This document shows positions 5,828-63,044 of a stretch of DNA of 64,000 bases, piece after piece. A program made the position numbers and the translations under genes. The notes below the pieces were generated by a model, which saw only the letters and a list, made by a program, of their open reading frames with translations, had not been told where the DNA came from and made no database searches. Source of the stretch: an uncultured Holophagae bacterium (GTDB taxonomy: Bacteria > Acidobacteriota > Thermoanaerobaculia > Thermoanaerobaculales > Sulfomarinibacteraceae); NCBI GenBank assembly GCA_963797055.1, contig CAWCOD010000005.1, forward strand, positions 189,995 through 253,994, in the 5' to 3' direction. Each line of letters starts with the position of its first letter. The first letter of the stretch is position 1.

Positions 5828-8173
5828 ATGAGTATGGTGTCGAGGGCGACTTTCGCGCTGGTGGTTGGTGTCTTGTGGGCGGGTTTTGTCATGGCCCAGA
5901 CGCAGCCGCCGCCGTTTGGCGACCGGCGTGGCGGCGAGGAGGACCGGATCCGACAACGGATCGAGTGGTTCGTCCAAACAAGAGGACTCGATCGGGTGTC
6001 GAGGGCGGATCGATTGCGCAGCGAGGCTGTGCTTGCGGTCAAGGCGGTTCGAGACGCGGACTCCGGCCGACGGTCGCCACCATGGACACCGCTGGGCCCG
6101 AACTCGATGACCATGTTGGATTGGCGGATTGAGGACGTTTCGGGCCGGGTTTCAGCCTTGGCGGTCCATCCCGAAGATGAGGACATCATCTATCTTGGTT
6201 CGGCCTCCGGCGGGCTCTGGAAGACCATCGACGGTGGCGGCTCATGGTCGCCGATCTTTGACGACGTAGGAACGCTGACCATCGGCAGCGTGGTGATCGA
6301 TCCGTCCTCTCCGGACACGTTGTGGGTGGGCACCGGTGAGCAGGGGCAGAGCTGCTGGTCGTACTTCGGGATGGGGCTTTTCCGCTCCACCGACGGGGGC
6401 GAGTCGTTCGAACCGGTCAATGGATCGGATTCTCAAACCCTGGACCTGTCTTTCATTACCGGCATCGTCGTCCATCCCGATCGTCCCGGGAACATCGTCG
6501 TGGGGGGTGAGACCTGGTGCGATGACGGTGCCTTTCTCTACGGTGGGCTCTATCGGTCCACCGACGGGGGGACCTCGTGGCAGCGGGAGATTTCGGGCGC
6601 CGTCACCGACGTGATCATGGACCCCAGCAGGCCCGACACGCTCTACAGTGCGGTAGGTCGGTGGTCGAATAACGTCAACGGCGTCTACCGCAGTACCGAT
6701 GCGGGCGCGACGTGGACCAGACTCGAGGGCGGTCTGCCGTTCGGCGCTCAAGTGGGTCGGACCCGGCTCGCCATGGCGCCTAATGACAGCGCGACGATCT
6801 ACGCCTTGATGAACCACGAATCAGGGGTGGAGTTGTACCGTTCCACCGACGGTGGCGACACGTGGGTTCTCACCAACCCCGACGCCTGCGACGGTCAATG
6901 CTGGTACAACCTGTGCCTTGCGGTGCACCCGCTCGATGCCACGCGACTTCTGCTGGGCGCGGTCCGCTTCTACGCTTCCCTCAACGCCGGGACCACGCTT
7001 GCTCCGCTGATCGACTTCTGGGGCCCCGGTCAGACGGTCCACCAGGACATTCACGTGCTGGTCTATTCACGGTTGGATCCAAACCGGTTTTGGGTTGCGG
7101 GCGACGGCGGTATCTGGCGATCCGACGACGGTGGTGTCAATTTCGAAAACCTCAACGCAAACTTGAACCTCACCCAGTATTACGACATCGCGGTCCATCC
7201 TTCAGATGCTTCGACTGTCTTTGGTGGTTCGCAGGACAACTCCTCGTCGGCCACCATGGGCGATATCAAATGGGACGTCACAGTGGTCACCGGAGATGGG
7301 TTCATCAACGTGGTGGACTCCGAAGATCCGCAGATCGTTCTTCAAACCTCGTACCCGTACGAGGGGTACCCTTCGCTCTTCCAGTCCATTTCAGGGGGGA
7401 TCCCCAACAGCTTTCAGTGGTTGTGGCTCACCGGTGTCACGCAGTACGAACCGTGGCCGTGGGTGACGCCCCTTGCGTCGTTGGCTTCGGGGAGCGGCAA
7501 CAACCATCTGTTGCTCGGATCGGACCACGTCTATCGGTCATCCACCGCCCACCCCAGCCAATGGACAAAGGTCTCGGGTGATCTCACCGGAACCAACGGA
7601 AGCCTGAGCGTGCTGCTGCCGGTGGCCAACCAGGACACGGTCATGGTCTACGCAGGGACCGGAAACGGCAAGATCCACAGAACCGACGACGTCCTGGCGG
7701 CCGCCCCCGAATGGGTCGATGTGACGGGCAACTACCCCGGAGACACGGTCACCGACATCGCCGTGGATCCCCAAGATCCGCTCGTCGTGCTGGTCACCCG
7801 CGGCCAATTCGACGCCAGTCGTCTCTACCGGTCCTCAACCGGCGGCACCGCGTGGCAGGCGGTTGGCGCCGGGTTGCCAAACGTGCCTGCCAACACCGTG
7901 GTGGTGGATCCGACGGACGGACGCCGGGTATTTGTTGGGACCGACGTGGGTGTGTTTGTCAGCACGGACCGAGGATTGAGCTTTGAGCCGATTGTGGATG
8001 GCCTGCCCTTGGGTTTGGTTGTGACAGACTTGGAGGTGGACGGCGATCCCCACGTTTTGACGGCGGGAACCTATGGTCGCGGCGCGTGGCAGCTCGAGCT
8101 CCGACCAATCGATCTCTTGGACGACGGCTTCGAGTCGGGGGATCTCTCCGCCTGGACGACCAGCTATCCGTGA
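5828..8173 (+). CDS. Secreted BNR/Asp-box repeat beta-propeller protein (sortilin/Vps10/GH74-like)
   Basis: Signal peptide MSMVSRATFALVVGVLWAGFVMAQ. Eight Asp-box-like motifs: IDGGGSW, STDGGESF, STDGGTSW, STDAGATW, STDGGDTW, SDDGGVNF, SSTGGTAW, STDRGLSF. Confidence 0.85.
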   Translation: MSMVSRATFALVVGVLWAGFVMAQTQPPPFGDRRGGEEDRIRQRIEWFVQTRGLDRVSRADRLRSEAVLAVKAVRDADSGRRSPPWTPLGPNSMTMLDWRIEDVSGRVSALAVHPEDEDIIYLGSASGGLWKTIDGGGSWSPIFDDVGTLTIGSVVIDPSSPDTLWVGTGEQGQSCWSYFGMGLFRSTDGGESFEPVNGSDSQTLDLSFITGIVVHPDRPGNIVVGGETWCDDGAFLYGGLYRSTDGGTSWQREISGAVTDVIMDPSRPDTLYSAVGRWSNNVNGVYRSTDAGATWTRLEGGLPFGAQVGRTRLAMAPNDSATIYALMNHESGVELYRSTDGGDTWVLTNPDACDGQCWYNLCLAVHPLDATRLLLGAVRFYASLNAGTTLAPLIDFWGPGQTVHQDIHVLVYSRLDPNRFWVAGDGGIWRSDDGGVNFENLNANLNLTQYYDIAVHPSDASTVFGGSQDNSSSATMGDIKWDVTVVTGDGFINVVDSEDPQIVLQTSYPYEGYPSLFQSISGGIPNSFQWLWLTGVTQYEPWPWVTPLASLASGSGNNHLLLGSDHVYRSSTAHPSQWTKVSGDLTGTNGSLSVLLPVANQDTVMVYAGTGNGKIHRTDDVLAAAPEWVDVTGNYPGDTVTDIAVDPQDPLVVLVTRGQFDASRLYRSSTGGTAWQAVGAGLPNVPANTVVVDPTDGRRVFVGTDVGVFVSTDRGLSFEPIVDGLPLGLVVTDLEVDGDPHVLTAGTYGRGAWQLELRPIDLLDDGFESGDLSAWTTSYP

Positions 8174-8275
8174 ATTTTTAATTCTCAATTTTGAATTTTG
8201 GATTTCCACCCTCCCCCCGTTTGATCCGGGCGGGTGGGGGCATAATTTAAAATTGAGATTTCAGAATTAAAAATT
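8173..8275. repeat. Foldback element between convergent genes: heptamer arm + C-box ... G-box + heptamer arm
   Basis: AATTTTTAATTCT (8173-8185) is the exact inverted repeat of AGAATTAAAAATT (8263-8275). The inner arms are imperfect. Core boxes are CCACCCTCCCCCC (8208-8218) and GGGCGGGTGGGGG (8228-8240). It may act as a bidirectional terminator. Confidence 0.75.
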
Positions 8276-11204: not shown

Positions 11205-11372
11205 ACCAGCGAGGTGAGAAGGTGAGAAGGTGAGAAGGAGAGGTGGGCGGGGGCTCCGACTTCGCGTTTCGCTACGCTGTGACACGTCTCCCATCTTGAA
11301 TCTTGCATCTTGCATCTTGCATCTTGGATCTTGGATCTCTGGATCTTAGATCGGGTGGGTGGGCGCCCGTTT
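11205..11372. repeat. Tandem arrays (ggtgagaa)x3 at 11212-11238 and (atcttgN)x8 at 11293-11350, each followed by a G-box
   Basis: Direct reading. G-boxes are ggtgggcggggg (11242-11253) and gggtgggtgggcg (11353-11365). The same unit types occur in opposite orientation at 562-890. Confidence 0.85.
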
Positions 11373-13455: not shown

Positions 13456-13645
13456 GTCGAAAGCCCAAAGTCGAAAGTTGAAAGTCCCCACCCTCCCGTT
13501 GCGAGGGGGCGCGAAAAGCGGGCGTGCCGTCTTCGGGCGCATTGCGAACGCGCTCACCCGGTGCCAGGCACCGTCGAAATCAAATCGTAGTACGAGGTCG
13601 ACACATCTGCAGCGGTGCCTGGCACCGACACGAATTTCGAATTGG
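13456..13645 (+). repeat. Intergenic composite: gtcgaaag units, GC 5' box, GGTGCCAGGCACC hairpin cassette (copy B1), heptamers
   Basis: GAACGCGCTCACCCGGTGCCAGGCACCGTCGAA (13546-13577) pairs with GCGGTGCCTGGCACCGACA (13612-13630). It is preceded by GGGGGCGCGAAAAGCGGGCGTGCC. Confidence 0.8.
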
Positions 13646-23135: not shown

Positions 23136-23152
23136 CGCCAGTCCACCTACCC

Positions 23153-23430
23153 CATTGCGAATTGCGAATTGCGAATTTCAGATTACAGATTGCAGATTGC
23201 AGATTCCGCCCGCCCACCCGGAGGGAGGAGGGTGCGTCTGGCGGGCGTGCGACTTTTGACATTGTTCGGATTCTCATCGCCGAAGGTACTGAGACAGGGG
23301 TCCGAACAATGTCAAGGGTGGCAACCTCGGGGAGCGCGTTAGGGAGAGGGCCACGCTGAAATCTACATGTCGAATCGAACGCGCTCACCCTGTGCCTGGC
23401 ACCCACATGGAATTTCGAATTCAAAATTCG
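23153..23430 (+). repeat. Composite intergenic element, copy A1: heptamer arrays + C-box + TTGACAxTGT hairpin element + half GGTGCC cassette + heptamers
   Basis: Heptamers 23153-23205; core 23206-23362 with stem ttgacattgttcgga (23256-23270) / tccgaacaatgtcaa (23301-23315); gaacgcgctcaccctgtgcctggcacc 23376-23403; ggaatttcgaattcaaaattcg. Confidence 0.85.
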
Positions 23431-25296: not shown

Positions 25297-25328
25297 AGCC
25301 CCAGACTTTAACATTCGATGAGATCGTG

Positions 25329-25638
25329 GCAGATTGCAGATTGCAGATTGCAGATTGCAGATTCCCCCGCCCACCCGGAGGGAGGAAGGCGCGATGGGCG
25401 GGCGTGCCGTCTTTGACAATGTTGGAGGTTGAGAGTTACACGGTCGTAGAACGTCCCGACATTGTCAAAGGGGGCAACCTCGGGGAGCGCGTGGGGAGAG
25501 GGGCGCGACGAAATCGGCTGATCGTGCCAAAGATCTTCTGAAGAGCGGCCGCACCGCGGTCCCCGACCCGGGCAGGGTGGGGGACATTCAAATCTGCAAA
25601 TCTGAAAATTCAATAGCCGGGTGGGCTGGAGGGTAGGT
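25329..25638 (+). repeat. Composite intergenic element, copy A2, with inverted heptamer + C/G-box termini
   Basis: (gcagatt)x5 at 25329-25364; core 25366-25516 with stem tttgacaatgttgg (25412-25425) / ccgacattgtcaaa (25456-25469). The right end GGGTGGGGG + attcaaatctgcaaatctgaaaattc (25577-25614) mirrors the left end. Confidence 0.85.
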
Positions 25639-27515: not shown

Positions 27516-27592
27516 ATTTCGAAAGTCGAATTCGAAGTACCCTACCCATCCGGAAGGCACCTCGCCCTTTTGCCCCAGATCGAGCGGGGACA

Positions 27593-27630
27593 ATCCGCAA
27601 TTCGCAATTCGCAATTCGCAATCCGTAATT
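27593..27630. repeat. Heptamer array (caattcg)x4
   Basis: ccgcaattcgcaattcgcaattcgcaatccgtaattc read directly. Confidence 0.85.
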
Positions 27631-27713
27631 CATAGTTGGCGGGAGCCGTATTGCCTCACGATCGCCATACGGCAGCCCTATCCGCCCGAAGTGCTGGTGG
27701 TACTCTTCGAGGG

Positions 27714-29282: not shown

Positions 29283-29746
29283 AGCTGGTGATCCAGCGAA
29301 CGTCCCGAGCAGAGGTGCGCGTGGACGGGGAAACCGTGGGTCGGATCGGCGTGGGGCTGGTCGTCCTTGTGGGGCTCGAACGGGGCGATACCGAGGTCCA
29401 ACTCGAAAGCGCGGCGCGCAGGTTGGCGACACTGAGGGTCTTCGAGGATGACGACGGCAGGATGAACCGCGGGCTCGACGAGGTCGGTGGCGCGGTGCTC
29501 GCGGTTTCACAATTCACTCTCGCAGCGTCGATCCGCAAGGGACGGCGTCCCGGATTCGACCGGGCCATGCCGAGTGGACAGGCAGAACCGCTCTTTGGCC
29601 TCTTCATCGAGAAACTGCGGGCGCACGGTCTATCGGTGGAGACCGGGGTCTTTGGTGCGATGATGGAGGTGGACCTGGTCAACGACGGGCCGGTCACGCT
29701 CCTGTGGCAGGATCCACCCACCGACCACCCGAGAGTCGAGAGTTGA
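29279..29746 (+). CDS. dtd: D-aminoacyl-tRNA deacylase
   Basis: (M)KLVIQRTSRAEVRVDGETVGRIGVGLVVLVG..., SQFTL motif. GTG 29279 overlaps the murJ TGA (GTGA). Confidence 0.85.
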   Translation: MKLVIQRTSRAEVRVDGETVGRIGVGLVVLVGLERGDTEVQLESAARRLATLRVFEDDDGRMNRGLDEVGGAVLAVSQFTLAASIRKGRRPGFDRAMPSGQAEPLFGLFIEKLRAHGLSVETGVFGAMMEVDLVNDGPVTLLWQDPPTDHPRVES

Positions 29747-30123
29747 AGGTTGAAAGTTGAAAGTTGGGTTCATCCGGGAAAGCGTGAGGTGGGGGTGTCT
29801 GCCCGTCCGTCCCCGCTTGCCACGGCGTAAGCCGTTGCGAATCCGGGTGTCCGGGCCCGAGAGGCAGCGTTCAGCGACAGCGGCTGGGTGCAGCGAGCAG
29901 GGACAGTCATCAGGGGCAGCGATCAGTTGCTTCCGCGGCATGGAATGGGTCACCTCCGGGTCGTTCCATGGGATGAATAGCCGGTGGCCAGCCGATGTCA
30001 AGGGCAAGCCGGGCCAGAGGCCCGCTGGCGCTGGTTGCTGACGCTGCCATCTGTCCCGGATCGCTGTCGCTGCCGCTGGCATCGGTATGCGGGCCCCCGC
30101 GTTCGCTTCGATTGACTCATTTC

Positions 30124-30311
30124 GAGGCGCCCATCTCCCCGAGGCGCTCTCCGAGGTTGCCGCCTTTGACAATGTTGGGACTTCTGAGGCCGAGTGAATC
30201 AGCTGAATGGACCCAACATTGTCAAAGACGGCACGCCCGCCATACCCGCCCACCGCGCTCCGGGTGGGCGGAGAAATCTGCAATCTGCAATTCGCAATTT
30301 GCAATTCGTAA
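30124..30311 (-). repeat. Composite intergenic element, copy A6 (reverse orientation) with heptamer array
   Basis: Stem tttgacaatgttggg (30166-30180) / cccaacattgtcaaa (30212-30226); GGGTGGGCGG 30262-30271; aaatctgcaatctgcaattcgcaatttgcaattcg 30273-30307. Confidence 0.85.
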
Positions 30312-30326
30312 TGGACGGGCGGGGGT

Positions 30327-45610: not shown

Positions 45611-45687
45611 CCCCCACCCGTTCATTACGAATTACGAATTGCGAATTTTTACGAATTGCGGACTTTGGGTTGCAGATTGCAGATTGT
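45611..45687. repeat. C-box plus heptamer arrays (attacga / gcgaatt / gcagatt)
   Basis: cccccaccc; cattacgaattacgaattgcgaatttttacgaattgcg...ttgcagattgcagattg. Confidence 0.85.
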
Positions 45688-45739
45688 CGCCACCGAGGAC
45701 TTTGATATCGAAAGTTGAAACGGGGTGCTTGGGCGGGGC

Positions 45740-45873: not shown

Positions 45874-46185
45874 AGGGTATGGAAGGTATGGCAAGTGTGG
45901 AGGGTGTGGAAATTGTCAAAGATGAACGTTGAACGTTACACGTTAAACGTTTGCCCCCCCCCAAAAAAAACACCTCAACCGAAGCAAGGGGGCGGGATGG
46001 GCGGGCGTGCCGTCCTCACGCGCTCCGAGAACGCGCTCACCCGGTGCCAGGCACCGTCGAACTCGCATCGGAGTACGAGATCTATACATCTGCGGCGGTG
46101 CCTGGCACCGACATGGAGATCGGAATACGAGGGTGGCTCCCTCGGGGAGCGCGGTTGGGAGATAGGCGCGTCGAAATCAGCGAAT
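45874..46185 (+). repeat. Composite: ggtatgga/gtgtgga units, ACGTT array, C9A8 tract, and GGTGCCAGGCACC cassette (copy B2) between the same 5' and 3' boxes as the A elements
   Basis: acgttgaacgttacacgttaaacgtt at 45926-45951. 5' box ggcgggatgggcgggcgtgcc; arms ccggtgccaggcaccgtcgaa (46041-46061) / gcggtgcctggcaccgaca (46096-46114); 3' box ggtggctccctcggggagcgcggttgggagataggcgcg. Confidence 0.8.
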
Positions 46186-46256
46186 CGAAGCGCGGCCACG
46201 GGCTGCATGGGCTGGGATCCTTGAGGTTGATCCTCCAGTGTTTCCTGACACCAGTT

Positions 46257-50420: not shown

Positions 50421-50592
50421 GTGGTTGAATTCGGAATTTGAAGACCCCGCCCACCCGGAGCGTGAGGGCGCGATAGGCGGGTGTGCCACTTTTGACATTG
50501 TTCGGGTCCTCATCGCTGAAAAATCTGAGACTGGGGTCCGAACAATGTCAAGGGTGGCAACCTCGGGAAGCGCGTGGGGAAAATCGGCGCGA
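50421..50592 (+). repeat. Composite intergenic element, copy A3
   Basis: gttgaattcggaatttgaaga; core 50446-50592 with stem ttgacattgttcggg (50492-50506) / ccgaacaatgtcaa (50538-50551). Confidence 0.85.
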
Positions 50593-50654
50593 CGGCGCTG
50601 TGCAGTGGATTCAGTCGCGAACCTGAAAGTACTTGGAGGACCTGCGGAAAGCAT

Positions 50655-51618
50655 TTAGTGCCGGGAGGGCTCGACGTCAAGGGGTAGTTGCGGGTCGGGT
50701 CCAGAAACCGTGGTGGTGATCCTCAGGATGGCGCCGATCAGGAGCGCAGCGCCCACCCACTGCCACCCGCCGAGCACCGAGCCGTTGATGAGGTAGTCGA
50801 AGACTACGGCCGACAGCGGAAGACAGAGTTCGCAGATTGCGGCCACGCTGGCCTTGACCCGGGTGAGCCCGTAGTAATACAGAAAGAGGGCCCCGCTGCC
50901 GGTGGTCAGCGAAATCACCAGGACAATCATCCATTCTTTTGGCGTGACCTCTGCGAAGGGCAGACCCGCGCCGCTGACGAGGGTATAGCCGAGGGCCATC
51001 ACCGCGGTCATGCCGTAGCGGCCGAAGGTGGCATCCTTGAAGTCGAGCGATCCGAGCAGCTGCTTGCCAAAGACGGTGGCCGAACCGAAGGCCGCCGCTG
51101 CGATCAGGGCCAGGGTTGCCGCCGTGACTGTGCCGTCGCCGGCTGTCACGTCGGGCAGCGCAAGCCCGAAGGCCAGCAGGTAGGCTCCACCGAACGCGAC
51201 GGCGGCCCAGCCGAGGAAACGCCAGGTGTGATCCGTTCCCTCAAAAGCACCGCCGCGAGTGAAATCGCGAACAGTGGCTGCAGCTTCTGCAACAGAACCA
51301 CAACGCTGAGCTGGTCGAAGTTCACCAGGAAGAGCGCTTTGACGATGGCCAGGGTGCCCACCAGGCCACCGGTGAGGGAGACCAACGCGAGGACCCACCA
51401 TCCTCGCCGCTCCATTGCGCCCTGAGGGCCCGCCAGCTTCGTCTCATGAGCGGCAGCATGATGGCGAAGGGCACTGCGTGCAGAAGGAAAACCACGAACG
51501 GGACCGGCAGGCTGATGGAGCCGCGGGGTCAAGACAACCCCGTCGAGACCCCAGGCGATGGCGGACAGACAGATCAGCAGTCCGCCCAGGGTTTGGAACG
51601 GTTGGTTGGCTGTGTCAA
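50655..51618 (-). pseudogene. EamA/DMT-family transporter disrupted by about four frame breaks
   Basis: Family-like TM segments sit in three frames: (TTG 51618) MTQPTNRSKP / LGGLLICLSAIAWGLDGVVLTPRL / SISLPVPFVVFLLHAVPFAIMLPLM / RRGWWVLALVSLTGGLVGTLAIVKALF..LLRERIT / WRFLGWAAVAFGGAYLL...GLTRVKASVAAICELCLPLSAVV. Breaks fall near 51590, 51500, 51415 and 51228. Confidence 0.65.
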
Positions 51619-56440: not shown

Positions 56441-56615
56441 GAGAAAATTCGAAAATCGAAATTTGAAATTCGAATGCCCGTTTTGGCCAAGGTTGTTTCA
56501 GCGCGCCCTTCTCCTCACCGCGCTACCCGAGGTTGCCCCTTGACAATGTCGGGACTCCAAGAGCCGGGCGACTCAGCCGTAGAGCCCCAACATTGTCAAA
56601 GAGGGCACGCCCGAT
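56441..56615 (-). repeat. Heptamer array plus composite element copy A7 (reverse orientation, lacks the C-box end)
   Basis: gagaaaattcgaaaatcgaaatttgaaattcgaat at 56441-56475. Stem ttgacaatgtcggg (56540-56553) / ccccaacattgtcaaa (56585-56600). Confidence 0.8.
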
Positions 56616-56671
56616 CATCGCGGCCAAACGCTCTGGATCGTTGGGGGCAATAACCCGATGGCCCCTAGGCC

Positions 56672-57871
56672 CTAGCTCCATCCGACGGGCTTCAGCGCCA
56701 GAGCATCGGCGTGGCGTGCGAGCGCTGTTCGTGCGGCCTCTCTGGTGGTCGGCGTGTCGGGTTCTTCTATGTGGAGGGACAGCACGTGGAGCCGTCCGGC
56801 CGCTCGGTCGGCCTTGAGGTCGAATCGGGCCACAAACTGATCGCCGGCGAGCACCGGCAGGCAGTAATAGCCGTAGATCCGTTGCTCAGCGGGTTTGAAG
56901 ATCTCCAGAACCTGGTGGAATCCGAACAGGGCTTCGACCCTCTGGCGGTCCCACAGGAGCGGGATCGAAGGGTGACAGCAGGATCCCCCGATCGCGCCGG
57001 GGACGGACGCGTTCCAGACGATCTGCCAGTTCCAGATCCTCGCCGCGAATCCAGCCGAGATGTTCCCGCCGTCCTCCGGCACCACCTTGCACTTCCGGAT
57101 GCGGCCCGACGCCTCCAGGGTCGCGAGCGCGTTTTTGATCTGCCCCTGACGCCGAGCTAGGCGCCAGGTTTGGGTCAGGGTGCCGGTGGTGGCCCATCCG
57201 TGGCCCTCGAGGGCCAATATCAGCAGGTTTTTGATGGCCTCCGACTCGGGCACCGGGTCGGAGCGCCAGCGCTCTGGAATCACCCGATCGGCGAGGTCGT
57301 AGGATCTCTGGAAGGAGCGGCGCTCTCGGATGGCGAGCTCGCCGGAGGACCACAGTGCGGTGGCGACCTTTTTTGCAACCTTGAGGTCCCACCAGCCTTG
57401 GCTCCCGCTCCCCTCCATGTCCACCGACCGCAGCGGCCCCTCGTCCCGGATACGCTTCACAAGCCTGTCCGCCACGCCTGGGTTCCGCCCGACGATGTCT
57501 CCCCACCATGGGTGGTGCCGAAACTCCCGCCTGCGAAAGTCAAAGATCGGGTAGAGATCCATGGGCAGCCAGCTCGCCTCGTGGCCCCAGTACTCGAAGA
57601 GCGGTTCGCCGGGACGGAGCAGCTCCTCGCCGAGTGCGGGGTCCATCCCGTCGATGCGCGACATCAGGACGATGGCGTGGCTGCGGGCCCCGGCCACCGA
57701 TACGGTGTCGAGCTGGAGGTAGCCGAAGCGTTCAATGACCCTCTGGGCCGCCGTTCTGGCGCGGGCGCCGCGACCGGCGGCCCTGACGGGCATCCCGGTC
57801 CACTCGGGTTTGAGCAGACCGCCCCGCGCCAGCGCCAGTCGCCGCGCCGCCCTGACCGACAGGGTGTCCAT
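56672..57871 (-). CDS. Winged-helix DNA glycosylase-like protein (YcaQ/AlkZ, DUF1006 family) with an out-of-frame internal segment
   Basis: FGYLQLDTVSVAGARSHAIVLMSR, LLWDRQRVEALFGF..IFKPAEQRIYGYYCLPVL..RFDLKADR. The conserved HLGWIRGEDLE..GILLSPFDP segment is readable only in the frame of ORF 56886..57509, between about 57060 and 56959. Confidence 0.75.
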   Translation of the reverse strand: MDTLSVRAARRLALARGGLLKPEWTGMPVRAAGRGARARTAAQRVIERFGYLQLDTVSVAGARSHAIVLMSRIDGMDPALGEELLRPGEPLFEYWGHEASWLPMDLYPIFDFRRREFRHHPWWGDIVGRNPGVADRLVKRIRDEGPLRSVDMEGSGSQGWWDLKVAKKVATALWSSGELAIRERRSFQRSYDLADRVIPERWRSDPVPESEAIKNLLILALEGHGWATTGTLTQTWRLARRQGQIKNALATLEASGRIRKCKVVPEDGGNISAGFAARIWNWQIVWNASVPGAIGGSCCHPSIPLLWDRQRVEALFGFHQVLEIFKPAEQRIYGYYCLPVLAGDQFVARFDLKADRAAGRLHVLSLHIEEPDTPTTREAARTALARHADALALKPVGWS

Positions 57872-57914
57872 TGGATGATGATCTCATGTCGTTGGGGAGG
57901 GAGCAGGGAGCAGG

Positions 57915-58258
57915 CCCCGCCCACCCATTACGAATTACGAATTACGAATTGCAGATTGCAGATTGCAGGTTGCAGATTCCCGCCCACCGGAGCGAGGTTG
58001 CGGGCGTGCAGAATTCGCGAGGATGTGCGAGATGCAGAGTCCTCCGCCCACCCGGAGAGAGGAGGGCGCGTCTGGCGGGCGTGCCACTTTTGACATTGTT
58101 CGGAGGTTTCGATGCAGCCGAAGGTACCCGAGGACAGGGAGTCCGAACAATGTCGAAGGGTGTGGCAACCTCGGGTCGGCGCGTTAGGGAGAGTGGCCAG
58201 CGCTGAAATCTACGATGTCGGATCGAACGCGCTCACCCGGTGCCAGGCACCGACATGG
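57915..58258 (+). repeat. Composite intergenic element, copy A4: C-box, heptamers, solo 5' box, full core, half GGTGCC cassette
   Basis: ccccgcccaccc; (attacga)/(gcagatt) arrays 57927-57979; solo box cccgcccaccggagcgaggttgcgggcgtgc 57979-58009; core 58043-58210 with stem ttgacattgttcgga / tccgaacaatgtcgaa; gaacgcgctcacccggtgccaggcaccgaca 58225-58254. Confidence 0.85.
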
Positions 58259-58300
58259 TGGGCCTTCCGGGCGGGTGGGGGATCTCGGATCTTCACCCGA

Positions 58301-58732
58301 TCAGGAGATGTCTCGATACTTCTCCAGCTTGGGACTGTCGCTGTCGATCTTGGGCAGCCCGTCCGTGCAGCGGAACCACGGCACCCGGTGGTCGTGGAAG
58401 ACGTGGGCTTGCGGTTCGCGGTCGATGGGGTCGTCGATGGCCGCGAGCACGACGTGGATCTCGCCCGGCGACAGGCTCGAGGTGTAGAACAGCGTGGTGC
58501 CACAGATCGAGCAGAATCCCCGCCGGCTCTGTTCCGAGGAGTCGTACCAGGTGAGTGCGTCCTCGCCCGCGGTGAAGGTAAACCGGTCATCCGCAGCCCC
58601 GACCCAGGTGACAAACGCGGCCCCGTGCGCGCCACGGCAGTAGCGGCAGTGACAGTGGGCGCAGAACAGCGTCGGCCCCTCGATTGAAAATCGGACGGCT
58701 CCGCAGAGACATTGACCGTGGTAGGCGCTCAT
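58301..58732 (-). CDS. GFA family protein (glutathione-dependent formaldehyde-activating enzyme / CENP-V fold)
   Basis: MSAYHGQCLCGAVRFSI..CAHCHCRYCRGAHGAAF..RGFCSICGTTLFY are the zinc-binding Cys patterns of the family. ATG 58732. The ORF-track extension translates repeats. Confidence 0.8.
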   Translation of the reverse strand: MSAYHGQCLCGAVRFSIEGPTLFCAHCHCRYCRGAHGAAFVTWVGAADDRFTFTAGEDALTWYDSSEQSRRGFCSICGTTLFYTSSLSPGEIHVVLAAIDDPIDREPQAHVFHDHRVPWFRCTDGLPKIDSDSPKLEKYRDIS

Positions 58733-58788
58733 GACTCGGACCTCCCTGGGTGTTCTTGCACCATGGTAGGCGGGTATGTCGTCGGAGG

Positions 58789-59200
58789 GAATTGAAAATG
58801 TGAAATGAGAAATGAGAAATGAAGGAAGTGAAAATTCGAACACCCCCACCCGCCCGGAGCGTGAGGGCGCGATAGGCGGGCGTGCCACTTCTGACACTTT
58901 CGGGAGGATGGGCGGCGATGCCGTCGGTGCCGTCCGGTCCCGAATAGTGTCAGGGGTGGCAACCACGGGGAGCGCGGTCGGGAGAGGGGCGCGCGGAATC
59001 GACAGATCGAATCGAACGACAGGACCCCCGTGGATCGGCCGTCCCGGCTGCAATCTCCGAGTTGTTGGATCCCACGATTGCAGGCGGGACGCCTGCTCCA
59101 CAATGCAGGCCCCAGGCTGCGCTACAACGCCGTGCCGGGCGGGTGGGCGGAACGTTTAACGTTCAACGTTCAACGTTTACACCCTCCACACCTTCCACAC
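58789..59200 (+). repeat. Composite intergenic region: gaaatga units, element copy A5, G-box, ACGTT array, ccacac units
   Basis: gaaaatgtgaaatgagaaatgagaaatgaagg; core 58843-59000 with stem ctgacactttcggga (58891-58905) / tcccgaatagtgtcag (58938-58953); gggcgggtgggcgg 59137-59150; aacgtttaacgttcaacgttcaacgttt 59151-59178. Confidence 0.8.
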
Positions 59201-59214
59201 TGGGCTGAGGGGAG

Positions 59215-60642
59215 CTAGCTCCTCACCCCCGGCAGATAGAAACAGACCACCTTGGGTTCGGTCATCTCCTGCAGCGAGAACCGGATCCCCTCCTTGCCGA
59301 GCCCCGAATTCTTGACACCGCCGAAGGGCATGGAGTCCAGCCGGTAGTCGGTGGAATCGTTGATGATCACGCTGCCGGAGTCGAGGCCCTCAGCCATCCG
59401 GTGGCAGACGGTCACATCGGAAGAGAACCCTGCCGAGTGGAGACCGAAATCCACGCTGTTCGCCTTGGCGATGGCCTCGTCGAGTTCGTCCACCACATAG
59501 AGGTTGACGGCGGGCCCGAAGACCTCGTCGTGGTGGATGGTGGCGTTCTCAGGGACATTTTCCAGCACGGTGGGCTCCATCAGCGCTCCGGTACGGTTGC
59601 CACCGGTCAGGATGGTGGCCCCGAGATCCCGGGCCTCCTCCACCCAGCGCTGGACGCGCTCGGCCTCGCCTTCGGTGATCATGGGACCCATGTTGGTCGC
59701 CTCGTCCATCTTGTCGCCGATGACGTAGTTCTTGGTGCGCTCGACGAAGAGGTCGCGGAAACGGTCGTAGACGTCCCGTTGGACATAGATGCGCTGGACC
59801 CCGATGCAATTCTGACCGGCGGCCCAGAAGGCACCGCTCACACAGGTCTCGGCGGCCCACTCGATGTCGGCGTCGGACCAGACGACGACCGGAGAGTTGG
59901 AACCCAGCTCCATGCCGATCTTCTTCAGGCCTGAACGGTTGGAGATGTGCTCGCCAGCCTCCAACCCGCCGGTGAACGAGACCATGCGCACTCTCCTGTC
60001 GGACACCAGGCTGTCGCCAAGAACAGCGCCGTGACCGGTGATGCACTGCAGCACACCGGCCGGCAGCCCGGCCTGCATAAAGGCATCGGTCAGCTTGAGT
60101 GCCGACAGCGGGGTCACCGTGGCCGGCTTGAGGATGACGGCGTTGCCGCCCGCGATGGCCGGTCCGAGCTTGTGGGCGACCAGGTTGAGGGGGTCGTTGA
60201 AGGGGGTGATGGCGAGCACCACGCCGATCGGTACGCGCTCGAAATATCCGCGCCGCGCTTCGCCGCCCGGGAAGCTATCGAAGGGGATGGTCTCGCCGGT
60301 CAGGCGCTTGGCCTCCTCGCCGGAGATGGTCAGGGTGTTGACCGTACGTCGCGCCTCGCCCCGCGCTTCGTTGATGGTCTTTGAACCCTCGCGGGCGATG
60401 GTGCGGGCGAATTCCTCCAGATTGTCGGCGACGATGGCCGCGGTCTCGAGCAGAATCTGCGATCGCTCATGGGTGGTCAATCTCCGTGCGGTCTCACGGG
60501 CCGCATCGGCGGTGGCGAGCGCGGTCTGCACGTCCTCGGCGGTGGCCGACGGCACGGTGTCGATGACGGAGTTGTCGAACGGGTCGCGAACATCGATCGT
60601 CTCATCGCGGTCGACCCAGGTGTCGCCGAGCAGCATCTTCAT
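59215..60642 (-). CDS. NAD(P)-dependent aldehyde dehydrogenase family protein
   Basis: MELGSNSP (catalytic Glu region), AAGQNCIGVQR (catalytic Cys), EVFGPAV. ATG 60642 overlaps the upstream stop (ATGA). Confidence 0.85.
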   Translation of the reverse strand: MKMLLGDTWVDRDETIDVRDPFDNSVIDTVPSATAEDVQTALATADAARETARRLTTHERSQILLETAAIVADNLEEFARTIAREGSKTINEARGEARRTVNTLTISGEEAKRLTGETIPFDSFPGGEARRGYFERVPIGVVLAITPFNDPLNLVAHKLGPAIAGGNAVILKPATVTPLSALKLTDAFMQAGLPAGVLQCITGHGAVLGDSLVSDRRVRMVSFTGGLEAGEHISNRSGLKKIGMELGSNSPVVVWSDADIEWAAETCVSGAFWAAGQNCIGVQRIYVQRDVYDRFRDLFVERTKNYVIGDKMDEATNMGPMITEGEAERVQRWVEEARDLGATILTGGNRTGALMEPTVLENVPENATIHHDEVFGPAVNLYVVDELDEAIAKANSVDFGLHSAGFSSDVTVCHRMAEGLDSGSVIINDSTDYRLDSMPFGGVKNSGLGKEGIRFSLQEMTEPKVVCFYLPGVRS

Positions 60643-61661
60643 GACTGCCTCCAGATGGTCAGGAGATCGTTGAGCAGGGAGAAACCGGTTTCCACACGGC
60701 CTGCCCCGGGGCCGACGATGGTCACGTCGCCCAGAGTGTCGGTTGTAATGGTCATGGCGTTTGTGGCGCCGCCGACCCCGGCCAGAGGATGGGAGAGATC
60801 CATCAGCTGGGGTGAGACGGATCCGTGAATCTGTTCGCCGTCGCGCCACACCCGGCCGATGAGTTTGAACCGCTTGCCATCGACCCGCGCCGCTGCGATG
60901 TCGTCGGGCGTGATCTCGGTGATGCCGGTGCACGGACTGTCGGACGGGGCCAGTTCGCCGCCGAAGACGGTGTTGGCGAGGATCGTGACCTTGGCCAATG
61001 CATCCCAGCCGAGCACGTCCGCATCGGGCACCGCTTCGGCGTAACCCAGCTCCTGCGCCTGTGCGAGGGCGGCCGCATAGTCCATTCCGCCCTCCATCTC
61101 GGTCAGGATGTAGTTTGTGGTTCCGTTGAGAATTCCCTTCATCTCGCTGATGTCCGCCCCGGCGAGGGTTTCCCGGATCAGGTTGAGCAGGGGAGTTCCG
61201 GCCATCACGGTGCCCTCGTAGAGGAACTGGACGCCGCGGTCGGATGCCAGATTCGCAAGTTCCGAGGAGTGGAGGGCCACCGGACCCTTGTTGGTGGTGG
61301 TGACGTGCATGCCCCGTTCGAGGGCGGCGCGGATGTGGTCGGTGGCTGGCTGGCCGGTCTCGATGTCAGTGTAGGTGGCCTCGAGCATGACGTCGGCGTC
61401 GGCCTCGGCGATCATGGTCGGGGCGTCCCAGTCGCGACCGACGCCGGGCCAATCGGACAGCGACTCGCCGCGATCGACGCGGGCCAGAGCCTCGGCGAGA
61501 TCGAGACCGTCGGGATTGTAGGCGCTACCCTTGAGCATGTCGGCGATGCCGACCACGGTCCAATCAAGCTCGTACATGGTTCGGAGTTCGTCTTTCTTGT
61601 CGAGTAGGAGATCGGACAGGCCCTGTCCGACCGTTCCAAAACCGATGAACAGCAGTTTCAT
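60639..61661 (-). CDS. hom: Homoserine dehydrogenase (no ACT domain)
   Basis: MKLLFIGFGTVGQG Rossmann motif, VTTTNKGPVA, GILNGTTNYILTEM, LGYAEAVPDADVLGWDAL. Confidence 0.85.
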   Translation of the reverse strand: MKLLFIGFGTVGQGLSDLLLDKKDELRTMYELDWTVVGIADMLKGSAYNPDGLDLAEALARVDRGESLSDWPGVGRDWDAPTMIAEADADVMLEATYTDIETGQPATDHIRAALERGMHVTTTNKGPVALHSSELANLASDRGVQFLYEGTVMAGTPLLNLIRETLAGADISEMKGILNGTTNYILTEMEGGMDYAAALAQAQELGYAEAVPDADVLGWDALAKVTILANTVFGGELAPSDSPCTGITEITPDDIAAARVDGKRFKLIGRVWRDGEQIHGSVSPQLMDLSHPLAGVGGATNAMTITTDTLGDVTIVGPGAGRVETGFSLLNDLLTIWRQS

Positions 61662-61670
61662 TGCAGCCTC

Positions 61671-63044
61671 CTAGATTTTCGCCAGTGCCTGATCGAGGTC
61701 GGCGATGGTGTCGTCCGGGTGCTCTGCGCCGACGCACAGCCTCACCATGGTGGGGGAGATCCCGGCGAGCTTGCGCCCCTCCTCGCCCTGTTGCTGGTGG
61801 GTGGAGATCGCCGGGATGGTTGCGACCGATTTGATGCGTCCCAGATCGGTGGCGCGATAGGTTCGTAGGAGTCCGTCGAAGAAGCGGCGAGCGTCGACGG
61901 CATTGCCCTTGATGTCAAAGGACATCAGGTGCCCGAAGGCGGGTGTTCCGTCGTCCACCACGTGCATGTGGCGGGTCGCGAGATCGTGCAACGGGTGGTG
62001 GGGGAGACCCAGATAGTCCACTTTCTCTACCCGAGGATGCTGCGACAGGAATTCGGCCACCGCCATGGTGTTCGCCGACATCTGGGCCACCTTGAGCCGC
62101 AGGGTGCGGACCTCGTTGAGGAGATAGTGGGCGGTGGCCGGACCCATGCACGGCCCGGAGTCGCGGAACGGCCACAGCTTCATCCACAGGGCGTAGTCGG
62201 CCCGTTGCTCGTCGTCAAGATGTTTGGAGATCAGGTCATGGCGGGCGATGATGCCACCGGCGATGGCGTCGCCGCCGGCCCCCGCCGTCTTGGACAGGGA
62301 GTGGACCACGATGTCGGCGCCGTACGCCAGCGGTCGCATCAGCGCCGGAGTCGCGATGGTGGCATCGACGATCAGTGGAATGTCATGAGCGTGCGCGAGA
62401 GCCGCGATGGCGGCGATGTCGAAACAGGCCTGTTGGGGATTTGACGGCATCTCCGCATAGAGAAACCGCGTGTTGTCGTCGATCAGCGGTCCCCAGGCTT
62501 CGATCCGCCACGGTTCGGTCACCCAGCGTACGTTGGCGCCACGCTCGGCCATCCGCAGATTGAAGAGTTGGAAGGTGCCGCCGTAGACCTGAGCGGCCGA
62601 CACGAAGTTGATCGGTTCTTCGCCGGCCGTGCGCTTCGCCAGCAGCGGCTCGGTGGCCTGCTTGATGGCGGCCATGCCCGACGACGTGCACAGCCCGGTG
62701 GCGTCAGTGTCACAGCCGTAAGACTCGAGCAAGGCGAGGGTCTCCTCCAGGTAGAACACGCTCGGGTTGTGGATTCGCGAGTAGCACCACGTTGGGATTT
62801 GATAGGAGAGCGCTGCCTCCATCTCATCCGAGTCGCGGTAGGCCTGGGAGGTCGAGGCGAAGATGGGTTCGATGATGCCGCCCTGTCCGCCGGCAAACGC
62901 CTCCTCCATGCTGTACATGCCGTGCACCGCGATGGTGTCGAATTTGAGCCGGCGGACCCGTGCTCGGTGCGCCGCCCGTGCGGCCATGGCTTCGCGCGCC
63001 TGCTCGATATACCTTTCGACTCCTGATGACGTGGTCGTGGCCAT
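61671..63044 (-). CDS. metY: O-acetylhomoserine/O-succinylhomoserine sulfhydrylase-like PLP enzyme (Cys/Met metabolism family)
   Basis: YSRIHNPS, LIVDATIATPALMRPLAYGADIVVHSLSKTAGAGGD (PLP Lys), VATIPAISTHQQ. Confidence 0.8.
   Translation of the reverse strand: MATTTSSGVERYIEQAREAMAARAAHRARVRRLKFDTIAVHGMYSMEEAFAGGQGGIIEPIFASTSQAYRDSDEMEAALSYQIPTWCYSRIHNPSVFYLEETLALLESYGCDTDATGLCTSSGMAAIKQATEPLLAKRTAGEEPINFVSAAQVYGGTFQLFNLRMAERGANVRWVTEPWRIEAWGPLIDDNTRFLYAEMPSNPQQACFDIAAIAALAHAHDIPLIVDATIATPALMRPLAYGADIVVHSLSKTAGAGGDAIAGGIIARHDLISKHLDDEQRADYALWMKLWPFRDSGPCMGPATAHYLLNEVRTLRLKVAQMSANTMAVAEFLSQHPRVEKVDYLGLPHHPLHDLATRHMHVVDDGTPAFGHLMSFDIKGNAVDARRFFDGLLRTYRATDLGRIKSVATIPAISTHQQQGEEGRKLAGISPTMVRLCVGAEHPDDTIADLDQALAKI

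Follow-up and report, generated by a model that had tools for sequence, protein, structure and literature searches.

We describe a large, earlier undescribed family of hairpin repeats from a group of uncultured soil Acidobacteriota. Seven copies lie in the window, the whole 64-kb stretch of DNA analysed here. The element is probably (at a probability of about 0.6) a selfish or mobile, or recombinationally spreading, intergenic repeat that forms a lineage-specific modular family of the BIME/REP/BOX kind. Taken together, the observations speak more for repeated or mobile DNA than for a conserved RNA gene.

Results

A repeat search, extraction of the sequences and alignment with MAFFT gave seven copies in the window. 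A degenerate pattern of 24 nt matched exactly seven times, with 0.00 matches expected. This bears out the coordinates and strands of the seven copies listed in an earlier annotation made from the letters alone (the sequence-only reading). The three-part order described there holds as well: CCGCCCACCC..GGCGGGCGTGCC is followed by the TTTGACA hairpin and then by GGCAACCTCGGGGAGCGCG..GGGAGAGGGGCGCG. In the window's genus the modules run in the order M1 hairpin, core, M3 hairpin, linker and GGTGCCWGGCACC palindrome, where M1 is a hairpin both C-rich and G-rich and M3 reads GGGGAGCGCG..GGGAGAGGGGCGCG; the composite unit measures 150–330 nt. Many copies run 25–50 nt or more past the 3' ends given earlier, through the linker (ATCGAAGCGAACGCG..) and then the GGTGCCWGGCACC palindrome.

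Copy 1 (23198..23372, +, 171.9 bits with the covariance model, CM) consists of the M1 hairpin, a core hairpin of subfamily a and the M3 hairpin, and its neighbours are the convergent gpsA (+) and a 4Fe-4S ferredoxin gene (−). The 3' continuation of this copy (23373..23410, +), made of the linker ATGTCGAATCGAACGCGCTCACC and the near-palindrome CTGTGCCTGGCACCC (repeat family D9), is predicted to base-pair with M3 when the element folds as RNA, and it recurs behind many copies at other loci. Copy 2 (25356..25524, +, subfamily b, 159.2 bits) has the start of thiI (−) on one side and the stop of an M50 peptidase gene (−) on the other, being antisense to both, and copy 6 (30109..30282, −, subfamily b, 172.4 bits) is placed between the convergent dtd (+) and an S41 peptidase gene (−). 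Copy 3 (50436..50608, +, subfamily a, 163.5 bits) is bordered by a gene of unassigned function (+) and an EamA transporter gene (−). Copy 7 (56485..56655, −, subfamily b, 139.6 bits), located between genes for an AlkZ-like glycosylase (−) and an AsnC regulator (−) and sense to both, had been thought to lack one end; its first module is diverged but present, and the model matches it at full length. Two antisense copies follow: copy 4 (58033..58258, +, subfamily a, 144.9 bits), which also carries the linker and a GGTGCCAGGCACC palindrome, in the spacer that separates the start of the AlkZ-like gene (−) from the stop of a GFA gene (−), and copy 5 (58835..59009, +, subfamily c, 142.3 bits) in the one that separates the GFA start (−) from the stop of an aldehyde dehydrogenase gene (−).

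Three partial relatives in the window are absent from the earlier list. The one at 45979..46186 (+), identified by the repeat families D6 and D3, by nhmmer and CM matches and by its sequence, joins the M1 end and M3 around another cargo, a long hairpin of two GGTGCCWGGCACC palindromes. That at 13481..13639 (+; repeat search, nhmmer and sequence) combines M1 with the GGTGCCWGGCACC double-palindrome hairpin and has no M3, and in both of them the central hairpin differs from that of the seven copies. The third, a solo M1-like mini hairpin CCCGCCCACCGGAGCGAGGTTGCGGGCGTGC (57979..58009, +), lies within a heptamer array upstream of copy 4.

Among the copies, which are clustered and have their modules shuffled, we found modules exchanged, duplicated, interrupted or missing; M1 and M3 enclose different cargos, and M1 frequently stands in tandem ahead of a full copy. 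A ~125-nt module is found at the same junction, between GGCAACC and T, in eight of the nine matches to its start motif, and is bordered by AACC on both sides irrespective of the preceding sequence; at the ninth match (L046) the start is the same and the segment is different and longer. M1 and M3 share the direct motif GGGAG(G)AGGGGCGCG, and by eye M1 matches neither M3 nor the linker end in reverse complement. Other genera hold the same core within different flanking modules. The core is the ancient part of the element.

At its 5' end the element meets heptamer arrays. An (ATTGCGA/ATTGCAG)n array at 23151..23207 (+), detected by TRF and a period-7 scan, abuts copy 1, and arrays of the same type abut copy 2 (25327–25365), copy 6 (30273–30312, − strand) and copy 4 (57927–57982). 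A period-7 array stands at most 42 nt upstream of 44% of the copies and downstream of 0%, compared with 6% for random spacers. The arrays are also present at orthologous sites that are empty of the element and, together with CCCACCC-type boxes, at most gene ends whether the element is there or not. The 5' end is placed polarly against pre-existing heptamer arrays.

The conserved core is a hairpin of ~76 nt with a ~30-nt loop and a 23-bp stem, in which TGCCACTTTTGACATTGTTCGGA pairs with TCCGAACAATGTCAAGGGTGGCA, rather than the 14–15 bp proposed earlier. It is flanked by the feet GGGCGTGCC (5') and GGCAACC (3'), with GGCGGGCGTGCC as the clamp on the 5' side. The stem contains an invariant TGACA/TGTCA box and, at its foot, two to three positions with a fixed wobble or mismatch. 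We count at least five arm subfamilies, where two loop subfamilies and three arm types had been described. Double changes are seen at 11 of the 18 upper-stem pairs; in the alignment of 81 copies, pairing holds for 89.6% of the cells, and double changes affect 24 of 42 pairs. Covariation scores 0.230, a value reached by 0 of 500 shuffles, compared with 0.135 for shuffles and with at most 0.064 for slid partners, in support of the idea that the stem is maintained by compensatory change. The compensatory change lies mostly between a handful of subfamilies and thus represents few events, inherited by many copies. Such covariation supports a conserved secondary structure, and it is equally expected for DNA repeats that depend on a hairpin.

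According to the RNA reading, the + strand of the element would give a multi-copy structured RNA, either a small regulatory RNA or a module that acts on the stability, processing or termination of neighbouring transcripts; covariation and G·U pairs would then be a sign of RNA folding, and ribosomes or pyrimidine-rich partners could be contacted by the GGAGG-like, purine-rich loops of M1 and M3. We consider this unlikely, although several observations point in its direction. Besides the significant compensatory changes, these include the conservation of the core across genera and the concentration of G·T wobbles on one strand, with 195 G·T against 16 A·C in the core hairpin and 89 against 13 in M3, which agrees with the strand specificity that the sequence-only reading had ascribed to the T-G wobbles. 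The arm mismatches are T-G, as stated there, but some copies also contain G-G and other mismatches. However, most wobble cells stand at three fixed positions inherited from the founders, and in M1 the asymmetry is reversed (26 G·T against 64 A·C). The + strand is predicted to fold better than the − strand in 52 of 54 copies, and a predicted fold z-score of −4.2 fits a structured RNA, but the opposite strand is computed to fold as significantly (z −4.17). A consensus scan detected neither a sigma-70-like promoter nor an intrinsic terminator at copies 1 and 2, and, as read from the sequences, neither strand has a conserved −10 box to go with the TTGACA of the stem, which again speaks against an RNA gene.

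The Rfam search points the same way. In the 64-kb window no family matched at its gathering score, and at E ≤ 10 three stretches gave chance-level matches only, the best being miRNA models and ar14 on the opposite strand. The ar14/'cuckoo' sRNAs of alpha-proteobacteria, known for CCUCCUCCC loops, recall the element in that the reverse-strand loops of M1 and M3 are rich in CCUCC-like runs, and cmscan aligned ar14 weakly over the whole element (E = 2.4). We rejected the identity because its 13.7 bits stay below the gathering score of 58.8, the strand is opposite to the wobble-favoured one and the phylum is a different one. There is no Rfam match, no GTAG/CGTC tag and, by eye, no terminal inverted repeat (TIR), in support of the earlier view that the element does not match a described REP/BIME, MITE or Rfam family.

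Further copies are numerous. A CM search of related MAGs, a check suggested with the original observation, yielded at least 81 full copies in ~0.6 Mb, that is 81 full-length matches at E ≤ 1e-14 in 616 kb (window and related MAG loci), a number from which slightly fewer independent copies remain since a few loci overlap (L012 with L079). A genome pattern scan detected the core in at least five Thermoanaerobaculia/'Holophagae' MAGs; single pattern matches in one Planctomycetota MAG and one Cytophagales MAG were not borne out by the CM. In viral contigs the core pattern gave 0 matches, and hence no sign of phage carriage.

We also compared insertion sites, which proved to be polymorphic: in genomes that are 80–87% identical, the orthologous sites are filled, empty or rearranged, and the copy content differs widely between close relatives. 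The lack of further copies and of polymorphic sites, either of which the sequence-only reading had named as grounds for its refutation, is thus not what we observed. Copy 6 is absent from the spacers at the orthologous position in L079 (122 nt) and L080, and the sites of copies 1 and 2 are likewise empty in L080, the third genome. The copy 2 site in L079 has become a rearranged multi-element cluster with a half-copy and newly added elements, the ortholog being ~80% identical and disrupted. In L078, a diverged copy 3 lies at the matching place together with an extra thioredoxin gene, and the copy 7 spacer holds M1 and M3 pieces in opposite orientation that are unalignable. Copy 4 is conserved less than its flanks: it differs from its L078 ortholog by a 49-nt solo module and many small indels, the surrounding tract being otherwise ~99% identical. 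The solo M1-like hairpin is missing from the ortholog. These missing, broken, replaced or indel-filled orthologs are difficult to reconcile with a conserved RNA. Among the available genome pairs, which are too diverged or too rearranged, the main element showed no clean filled/empty junction and no target-site duplication could be established.

Copy 1 behaves differently. It is 98–100% identical to its ortholog in a sister MAG, loop included, between genomes whose flanking genes are ~80% identical, and no other 200-nt bin in 18 kb is like it. This near-invariance counts in favour of a structured RNA, and a selfish insertion in neutral decay would not be expected to show it, unless recent conversion or a short tract of recombination is responsible. 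Copy 5 and its L078 ortholog are 100% identical; as the ~99% identical recombination tract around them also covers coding DNA, we do not accept the identity as functional evidence. The JBFELO/JASFPU pair is ~50% identical. Extreme orthologous conservation as a general proof of function was thus rejected, being contradicted by copies 2, 4 and 5 and by this pair, which leaves copy 1 as the single exception.

None of the 110 copies examined (0/110) lies in a predicted gene, so that the claim of a purely intergenic element stands. Their contexts were 33 convergent, 32 antisense co-directional, 21 sense co-directional and 13 divergent, against 22% convergent and 22% divergent among background spacers, counts that rest on a home-made codon-bias gene finder which misses some genes and on loci that in part overlap. 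Copies thus occur in every orientation relative to genes, and this lack of bias between sense and antisense, together with the copies in divergent spacers, argues against a structured RNA. Non-autonomous elements of the IS200/IS605 type would be biased in orientation relative to replication, as they insert into the lagging-strand template; here, judged at the level of single loci, the coding GC skew of the element strand is positive in 66 loci versus 43, and the element runs along the strand of most genes in 53 cases versus 57.

The enrichment between convergent genes and the depletion between divergent ones could also be read as a sign of DNA sites maintained by the host. The hairpins would then be intergenic 'punctuation', bound by nucleoid, topoisomerase or termination factors and forming a lineage-wide set with the C-rich boxes and heptamer arrays, and recombination would spread those copies that are useful at gene ends. 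Copies stand systematically next to CCCACCC-type boxes and heptamer arrays, both features of most gene ends, which fits this proposal, and the invariant TGACA/TGTCA box of the stem suggests sequence-specific recognition. Nevertheless, we regard such sites as quite improbable: the element is missing from many orthologous gene ends, close relatives differ widely in copy content, and the same distribution is expected of selfish elements that are purged from promoters. Least probable of all, to our mind, is that M1–cargo–M3 units, C-rich boxes and heptamer arrays form a lineage-wide functional system of single-stranded scaffolds, as RNA or extruded DNA, whose hairpin cargos would be swapped site-specifically at the fixed junctions GTGCC, GGCAACC and AACC; if true, this would account for how nearly perfectly copy 1 is conserved between diverged genomes and would amount to a cassette system of non-coding hairpins for transcript-end processing or regulation.

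Discussion

For a selfish, mobile repeat, a plausible mode of spread can be outlined. New copies would arise via a single-stranded intermediate of the element's + strand, and the hairpin with its conserved feet would be recognised by a structure-specific enzyme, for which HUH/Y1 transposases such as those of the RayT/IS200 type are the foremost candidates. If only hairpin-competent variants can found new subfamilies, the covariation would be explained. The mosaics may have arisen by later homologous recombination and gene conversion among copies.

Several known systems resemble the element. BOX of Streptococcus pneumoniae has the structure boxA-(boxB)n-boxC, and ERIC, RUP and Correia/NEMIS are similar modular intergenic repeats. 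With these BOX-type repeats our element shares, as judged by description, a size of ~100–300 nt, an intergenic location, a fixed module order with variable internal content, a strong predicted secondary structure, more than 100 copies and the lack of coding capacity. RUP and Correia are MITE-type elements with terminal inverted repeats and target-site duplications, neither of which we saw in the element (TIR judged by eye). We know of no polar association with heptamer arrays in the BOX, ERIC, RUP or Correia families, and no likeness in sequence to them was recognised in the sequence-only reading.

Palindrome-associated transposable elements are non-autonomous derivatives of the IS200/IS605 family. 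They have in common with our element the lack of a TIR (by eye here), a strand-specific structure, variable cargo between constant ends, and direct-orientation hairpins near both ends that are partly similar, here by the motif shared between M1 and M3. In contrast to them, no copy of tnpA or tnpB is found between M1 and M3, and no conserved 4–5 nt target was evident 5' of the left end; the AACC repeat was seen at the separate ~125-nt module alone. We also found no autonomous copy, i.e. no M1..M3 pair more than 300 nt apart and no M1..ORF..M3 arrangement, and no IS whose ends match the element; all these searches covered ~700 kb, a sample picked for core-hairpin content and not a whole genome.

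The likeness to the BIME/REP (PU) mosaics and REPINs of Enterobacteria and Pseudomonas extends to the extragenic location and high copy number, to imperfect palindromes that fold as single strands and combine with other motifs in mosaics or clusters, to sites at gene ends and between convergent genes, to variation between related genomes and to a gene for a RayT-type Y1 transposase, here in a sister genome. However, REPs measure 20–40 nt, compared with a core hairpin of 76 nt in a composite of 150–330 nt, and the modules of our element follow in direct order, unlike the alternating orientation within BIMEs. [quoted passage not shown] This tag is not conserved here: CGTC appears in subfamily b only (GCCGTCTTTGACA), and the feet are GGGCGTGCC and GGCAACC. 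Furthermore, in a REPtron the RAYT gene is flanked by its own repeat, whereas RayT is here flanked by separate short GT(A/G)G REPs.

The search for a RAYT/IS200-like transposase with matching ends, proposed together with the first description of the repeat, succeeded as far as the gene is concerned and failed for the ends. A Y1_Tnp/RayT-like gene (L067:2069-2755) was located in a sister MAG with a probe sequence and then confirmed by Pfam (PF01797). At a distance of 110 nt, the other strand carries one copy of the element, and the same arrangement is seen in L088, which is probably the same orthologous locus and hence no independent association. The gene and its homologs in L081, L086 and L087–L089 are flanked by short GT(A/G)G-tagged REPs unlike the element in sequence, in the L067 context a GTGGAGCAGGCGTCCCGCCTGCA REP. 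As the flanks of the gene and of five homologs carry this different REP, a role of this RayT as the mobiliser of the element is unproven, and the proximity to the one copy may be due to chance. Many of the RayT homologs are found on ~1-kb contigs. The inverted-repeat motif of acidobacterial TIRYTs is GGGGWSAS (PMC3733652). It is present in M3 as GGGGAGAG, which we treat only as a lead since an 8-mer is concerned within G-rich sequence.

With its covariance model and module grammar, the element provides a defined repeat family for a widespread uncultured lineage of soil and sediment Acidobacteriota. Repeats of this sort fragment short-read assemblies, act as seeds of recombination and interfere with the annotation of intergenic regions and the discovery of RNA motifs. 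The polar docking on heptamer arrays may help to show how hairpin repeats choose their targets. Should the RNA or the 'punctuation' explanation be true instead, the family would represent an unknown mode of gene-end organisation. The coexistence of GT(A/G)G REPs and RayT may in turn show whether one Y1 transposase services several kinds of hairpin. The same short GT(A/G)G REPs are also found in the window itself, at 59079–59125.

Results and Discussion

The element belongs to a genuine, previously undescribed family of a known kind, the modular intergenic hairpin repeats. All seven copies that the sequence-only reading had located in the window (copies 1–7) were borne out: a repeat search returned them as repeat families D1, D3, D8, D12 and D15 together with the inverted pairs I1–I4, I6 and I10, the degenerate 24-nt pattern CGGGYGTGCSNYYTYTGACANTKT, which runs from the last part of the first module into the beginning of the hairpin, gave exactly 7 matches in the window versus 0.00 expected, and MAFFT aligned the copies with a mean column identity of 70% and 62 invariant columns. 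Three partial relatives at 13481–13639, 45979–46186 and 57979–58009 had been overlooked, however. Copy 7 was thought to lack one end, but its first module is diverged rather than absent, and the covariance model finds it at full length at 56485–56655. At the 3′ side, several copies are also longer than first proposed and go on to a conserved linker followed by a GGTGCCWGGCACC palindrome.

RNAalifold lengthened the hairpin of the seven copies to a stem continuous over 23 bp, in which TGCCACTTTTGACATTGTTCGGA pairs with TCCGAACAATGTCAAGGGTGGCA, and added two smaller flanking hairpins, M1 on the 5′ side (CCGCCC..GGCGGG stem, GGAGGGAGGAGGG loop) and M3 on the 3′ side (GAGCGCG..CGCGC stem, GGGAGAGGGG loop). 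According to positional information content, the 10 nt CGGGCGTGCC directly 5′ of the hairpin and GGCAACC.CGGGG directly 3′ of it are near-invariant anchors, and conservation tails off ~35 nt upstream and ~65–70 nt downstream of them. In the stem, TGACA/TGTCA is invariant and the adjoining pairs covary. On the + strand, M1 and M3 each carry three or four runs of 3–4 G (23206–23250, 23320–23355 and their equivalents), in the patterns GGG AGGA GGG .. GGG C GGG and GGGG AGCGCGT GGGG AGA GGGG; judged by these runs, G-quadruplexes could form. The opposite strand of both modules has CCUCC-rich, anti-Shine–Dalgarno-like loops.

A genome scan with the 24-nt pattern yielded at least 77 eight-kb stretches, the window not among them. 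The majority of those listed come from the MAG "uncultured Holophagae bacterium MFD09964.bin.1.27" (CAVQBD01), the window's nearest relative, with ~80–87% nucleotide identity in syntenic genes. Further source MAGs among the matches listed are Ca. Sulfomarinibacteraceae JBFELO01, CAWAUY01, Holophagae JASFPU01 and Thermoanaerobaculia CAZXMW01. One pattern match each in a Planctomycetota and a Cytophagales MAG was negative with the covariance model and was set aside as chance. Searched with nhmmer, the 77 loci and the window together gave 77 full copies and 60 partial ones. In the proposed covariance-model search of related MAGs, the model built from the window copies (R1) gave 81 full-length matches (E≤1e-14) in 616 kb, slightly fewer being independent because a few loci overlap (L012 with L079). 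By extrapolation from 7 copies per 64 kb, a 5-Mb genome would hold several hundred.

That the hairpin is kept by compensatory change, as had been claimed, is confirmed by the 81-copy R1 alignment, which was itself fitted to the structure. Standard pairs make up 89.6% of its cells, and changes at both sides occur in 24 of 42 pairs, with double changes in 11 of 18 pairs of the upper stem. The covariation score is 0.230 versus 0.135 for shuffles (0 of 500 reach it), and sliding the partners by 1–3 columns lowers it to ≤0.064. One stem pair, for example, is UA in 31 copies, CG in 25 and AU in 17, another GC in 40 and UA in 23. Direct arm pairing in 54 copies separates discrete subfamilies, with the arms TTTTGACATTGTTCGGA (a), CTTTGACAATGTTGGGA (b), ..ACATTGTTGGGA (b2), TTCTGACACTTTCGGGA (c) and ..AATTTCGGGA (c2); a further arm, ..ACATTGTGCCGA, comes from JASFPU01. 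We conclude that the covariation is real and perhaps goes back to about seven to ten events that were passed on to many copies.

The two strands are not equivalent. G·T cells outnumber A·C cells in the core hairpin (195:16) and M3 (89:13), with the opposite asymmetry in M1 (26:64), and 52 of 54 copies have a hairpin that folds more stably as the + strand than as the complement (means −42.8 vs −35.2 kcal/mol). Three fixed positions at the stem foot account for most of the wobble cells, which reflect a trait of the family, not a series of separate changes. Compared with shuffles, extended copy 1 folds far better on either strand (z −4.24 and −4.17). The asymmetry says that one strand is the relevant single strand, be it RNA or DNA. 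A role as structured RNA would agree with the G·T excess. According to Pfam, three copies lie between convergent genes: copy 1 has gpsA and a ferredoxin gene as neighbours, copy 6 dtd and an S41 peptidase gene, and copy 3 a gene of unknown function and an EamA gene. Copy 7 lies in sense between AlkZ-like and AsnC genes, and copies 2, 4 and 5 are antisense to both neighbours. With a custom codon-bias gene finder, which recovers the Pfam-supported genes and misses some others, none of 99 copies fell inside a gene, in line with the earlier claim that all are intergenic. Of these, 33 were convergent, 32 antisense co-directional, 21 sense co-directional and 13 divergent, compared with 22% convergent, 22% divergent and 56% co-directional background spacers (chi-square ~9.6, 2 df, hand calculation). 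The missing sense bias argues against a cis-acting leader, terminator or 3′-UTR element, and a consensus scan revealed no promoter-like or terminator-like sites at copies 1 and 2. We consider a structured-RNA role unlikely.

Only GGCGGGCGTGCC–hairpin–GGCAACC is common to other genera. In JBFELO01 copies the left half of M1 is replaced by a GGTGTCAGATGGTCGA..GACAGCGCC module, while the JASFPU01 and CAZXMW01 copies are without M3 and have different flanks. As the core is shared across genera and the flanks are not, the hairpin with its feet represents the old core, and all other modules, M1 and M3 among them, are lineage-specific. A full unit in the window's genus is made up of M1, core hairpin, M3, linker (ATCGAAGCGAACGCGCGGGCC or ..CGCGCTCACC) and one or two GGTGCCWGGCACC palindromes. 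Its parts are exchangeable: at 45979–46186 a double-palindrome hairpin replaces the core between the usual M1 and M3, and full copies are often preceded by M1 plus a mini hairpin (GTGCCACTCCGGGCAC) and then an (ACGTTNN)n array. A ~125-nt GC-rich module (TGCCGGCGGCAGCG..GGTGACGGCTGGTCACC..GGCCGCGAGTAACC) sits inside M3 at L021, L033, L049, L056, L061, L072, L078 and L079. In these eight of nine start-motif matches the junction is fixed, GGCAACC/TGCCGGCGGCAGCG...GCGAGTAACC/TCGGGG, with AACC at both sides; the ninth (L046) starts identically and continues with a different, longer segment. The module can follow a hairpin (subfamily a, b or c), the palindrome module or M1 itself. It represents either a small element inserted site-specifically or an M3 domain that is optional.

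Orthologous sites were compared in syntenic 21-kb stretches, found by protein searches, from CAVQBD01 (L078, L079) and from L080, a third and more distant genome of the same sample. At the copy 6 site, the window's dtd–S41 spacer measures 581 nt, and those of L079 (122 nt) and L080 (189 nt) contain heptamer arrays and a small hairpin only. Copy 1 is present in the window and L079 and absent from L080, where both flanking arrays remain. At the copy 2 site the window has a single copy and L080 no copy; L079 has the first half of the ortholog (~80% identical) and next to it a second, full copy from a different subfamily, then a palindrome module and M3 with the 125-nt module. In L078, the copy 7 spacer is unalignable and contains M1 and M3 pieces in opposite orientation, and the copy 3 site has a diverged copy and an extra thioredoxin gene. 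A 1.7-kb tract with ~99% identity between window and L078, coding sequence included, contains both copy 4 and copy 5. Copy 5 is identical to its ortholog. Copy 4 is set apart from its own by about a dozen small indels and an inserted solo M1 of 49 nt, and the ortholog is closer to copy 1 (92%) than to copy 4. The more distant pair JBFELO01/JASFPU01 has copies at the same position that are only ~50% identical. Such behaviour is that of mobile, recombining and dispensable DNA, and a host "punctuation" role, to which the convergent spacers might point, seems very unlikely. At odds with the mobile pattern, copy 1 plus linker is 98–100% identical to its ortholog, the sole such 200-nt bin in 18 kb at ~80%; recombination over a short tract, a recent conversion event or genuine constraint could be the cause.

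Three smaller observations concern these loci. A thioredoxin-family gene lies between the EamA gene and the element at L078:17343–18127 and is missing from window 50592–50655, a gene gain or loss directly beside copy 3. Copy 4 alone (58033–58220 vs L078:9715–9887) has a hairpin damaged by about a dozen 1–4-nt insertions and substitutions within its ~99% identical surroundings; paralog conversion, local decay or an assembly/polishing error in the repeat could be the cause. Tracts with 96–100% identity to L078, including coding sequence (57400–59130, 59800–60200, 61600–62000; background 80–87%), suggest recent recombination between species-level lineages, or MAG cross-contamination or chimerism.

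The element resembles BIME/REP mosaics and BOX elements in being extragenic, modular, hairpin-based, clustered and variable among relatives. It does not have the size, GTAG/CGTC tag or REPtron that define REPs, and no Rfam family matches it, in line with the earlier reading, which recognised no described REP or Rfam family in it. Viral contigs lack the element, and the literature searched contains no description of repeats in this lineage. Most likely, with a probability of roughly 0.6, we are dealing with selfish or mobile DNA. It would propagate through a single-stranded hairpin intermediate, and recombination would afterwards reshuffle the copies.

Hairpin-plus-foot architecture and strand asymmetry suggest Y1/HUH as the candidate class of mobilising enzyme. 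Inspection by eye gave no terminal inverted repeats, and the ~700 kb sampled contain neither an M1..M3 pair enclosing an ORF nor a tnpA-bearing full-length copy that would mark the element as an IS200/IS605 derivative. The proposed search for a RAYT-like transposase did find a gene in the sister MAG, but its flanks are different REPs. An approximate E. coli RayT query, taken as a lead, matched one ORF by phmmer, L067:2069–2755, which is Y1_Tnp by Pfam (30.5 bits vs cut-off 23) and whose homologs carry the JGI name "REP element-mobilizing transposase RayT". At 110 nt downstream of this ORF, the opposite strand carries an element copy. Short palindromes with a GT(A/G)G tag, for instance GTGGAGCAGGCGTCCCGCCTGCA, flank the gene (at L067:2770–2850) and its homologs in five other contexts (L087, L088, L081, L086, L089); they are of the classical REP type (PMC3733652) and distinct from the core hairpin. 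A doublet of them (GTGGAGCAGGCGTCCCGCCTGCA and GTAGCGCAGCCTGGGGCCTGC, − strand, 59079–59125) also occurs in the window beside copy 5. Alongside the larger element there is thus a canonical REP–RayT system.

Docking on heptamer arrays is, together with the conservation of copy 1, most worth following. The window contains 28 period-7 arrays, nearly one per spacer (for example 485–510, 2328–2485, 8173–8205, 11293–11341, 27591–27634, 29738–29766, 45624–45689 and 59151–59179), often bordered by CCCACCC/CCCGCCC boxes, which read GGGTGGG on the other strand. The A/T-rich units (AATTCGA, ACGTTNA, ATCTTGN, GAAAGTT, GCAGATT and others) vary from site to site and between orthologs, and in convergent spacers paired arrays can be reverse complements around a small hairpin (L079:11994–12116). 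In 44% of copies an array is present in the 42 nt that precede the element's 5′ end, as against 0% downstream and 6% for random spacer segments. Since empty orthologous sites have arrays too, the arrays were there before the element, which docks at their inner end or is retained there. The nearest literature describes TAACTGA heptamer arrays in Beggiatoaceae and Cyanobacteria (PMC4679880). Finally, a PF05635 gene ("23S rRNA intervening sequence protein", L067:1645–2019) directly precedes the RayT-like gene and is placed between two mutually complementary heptamer arrays.
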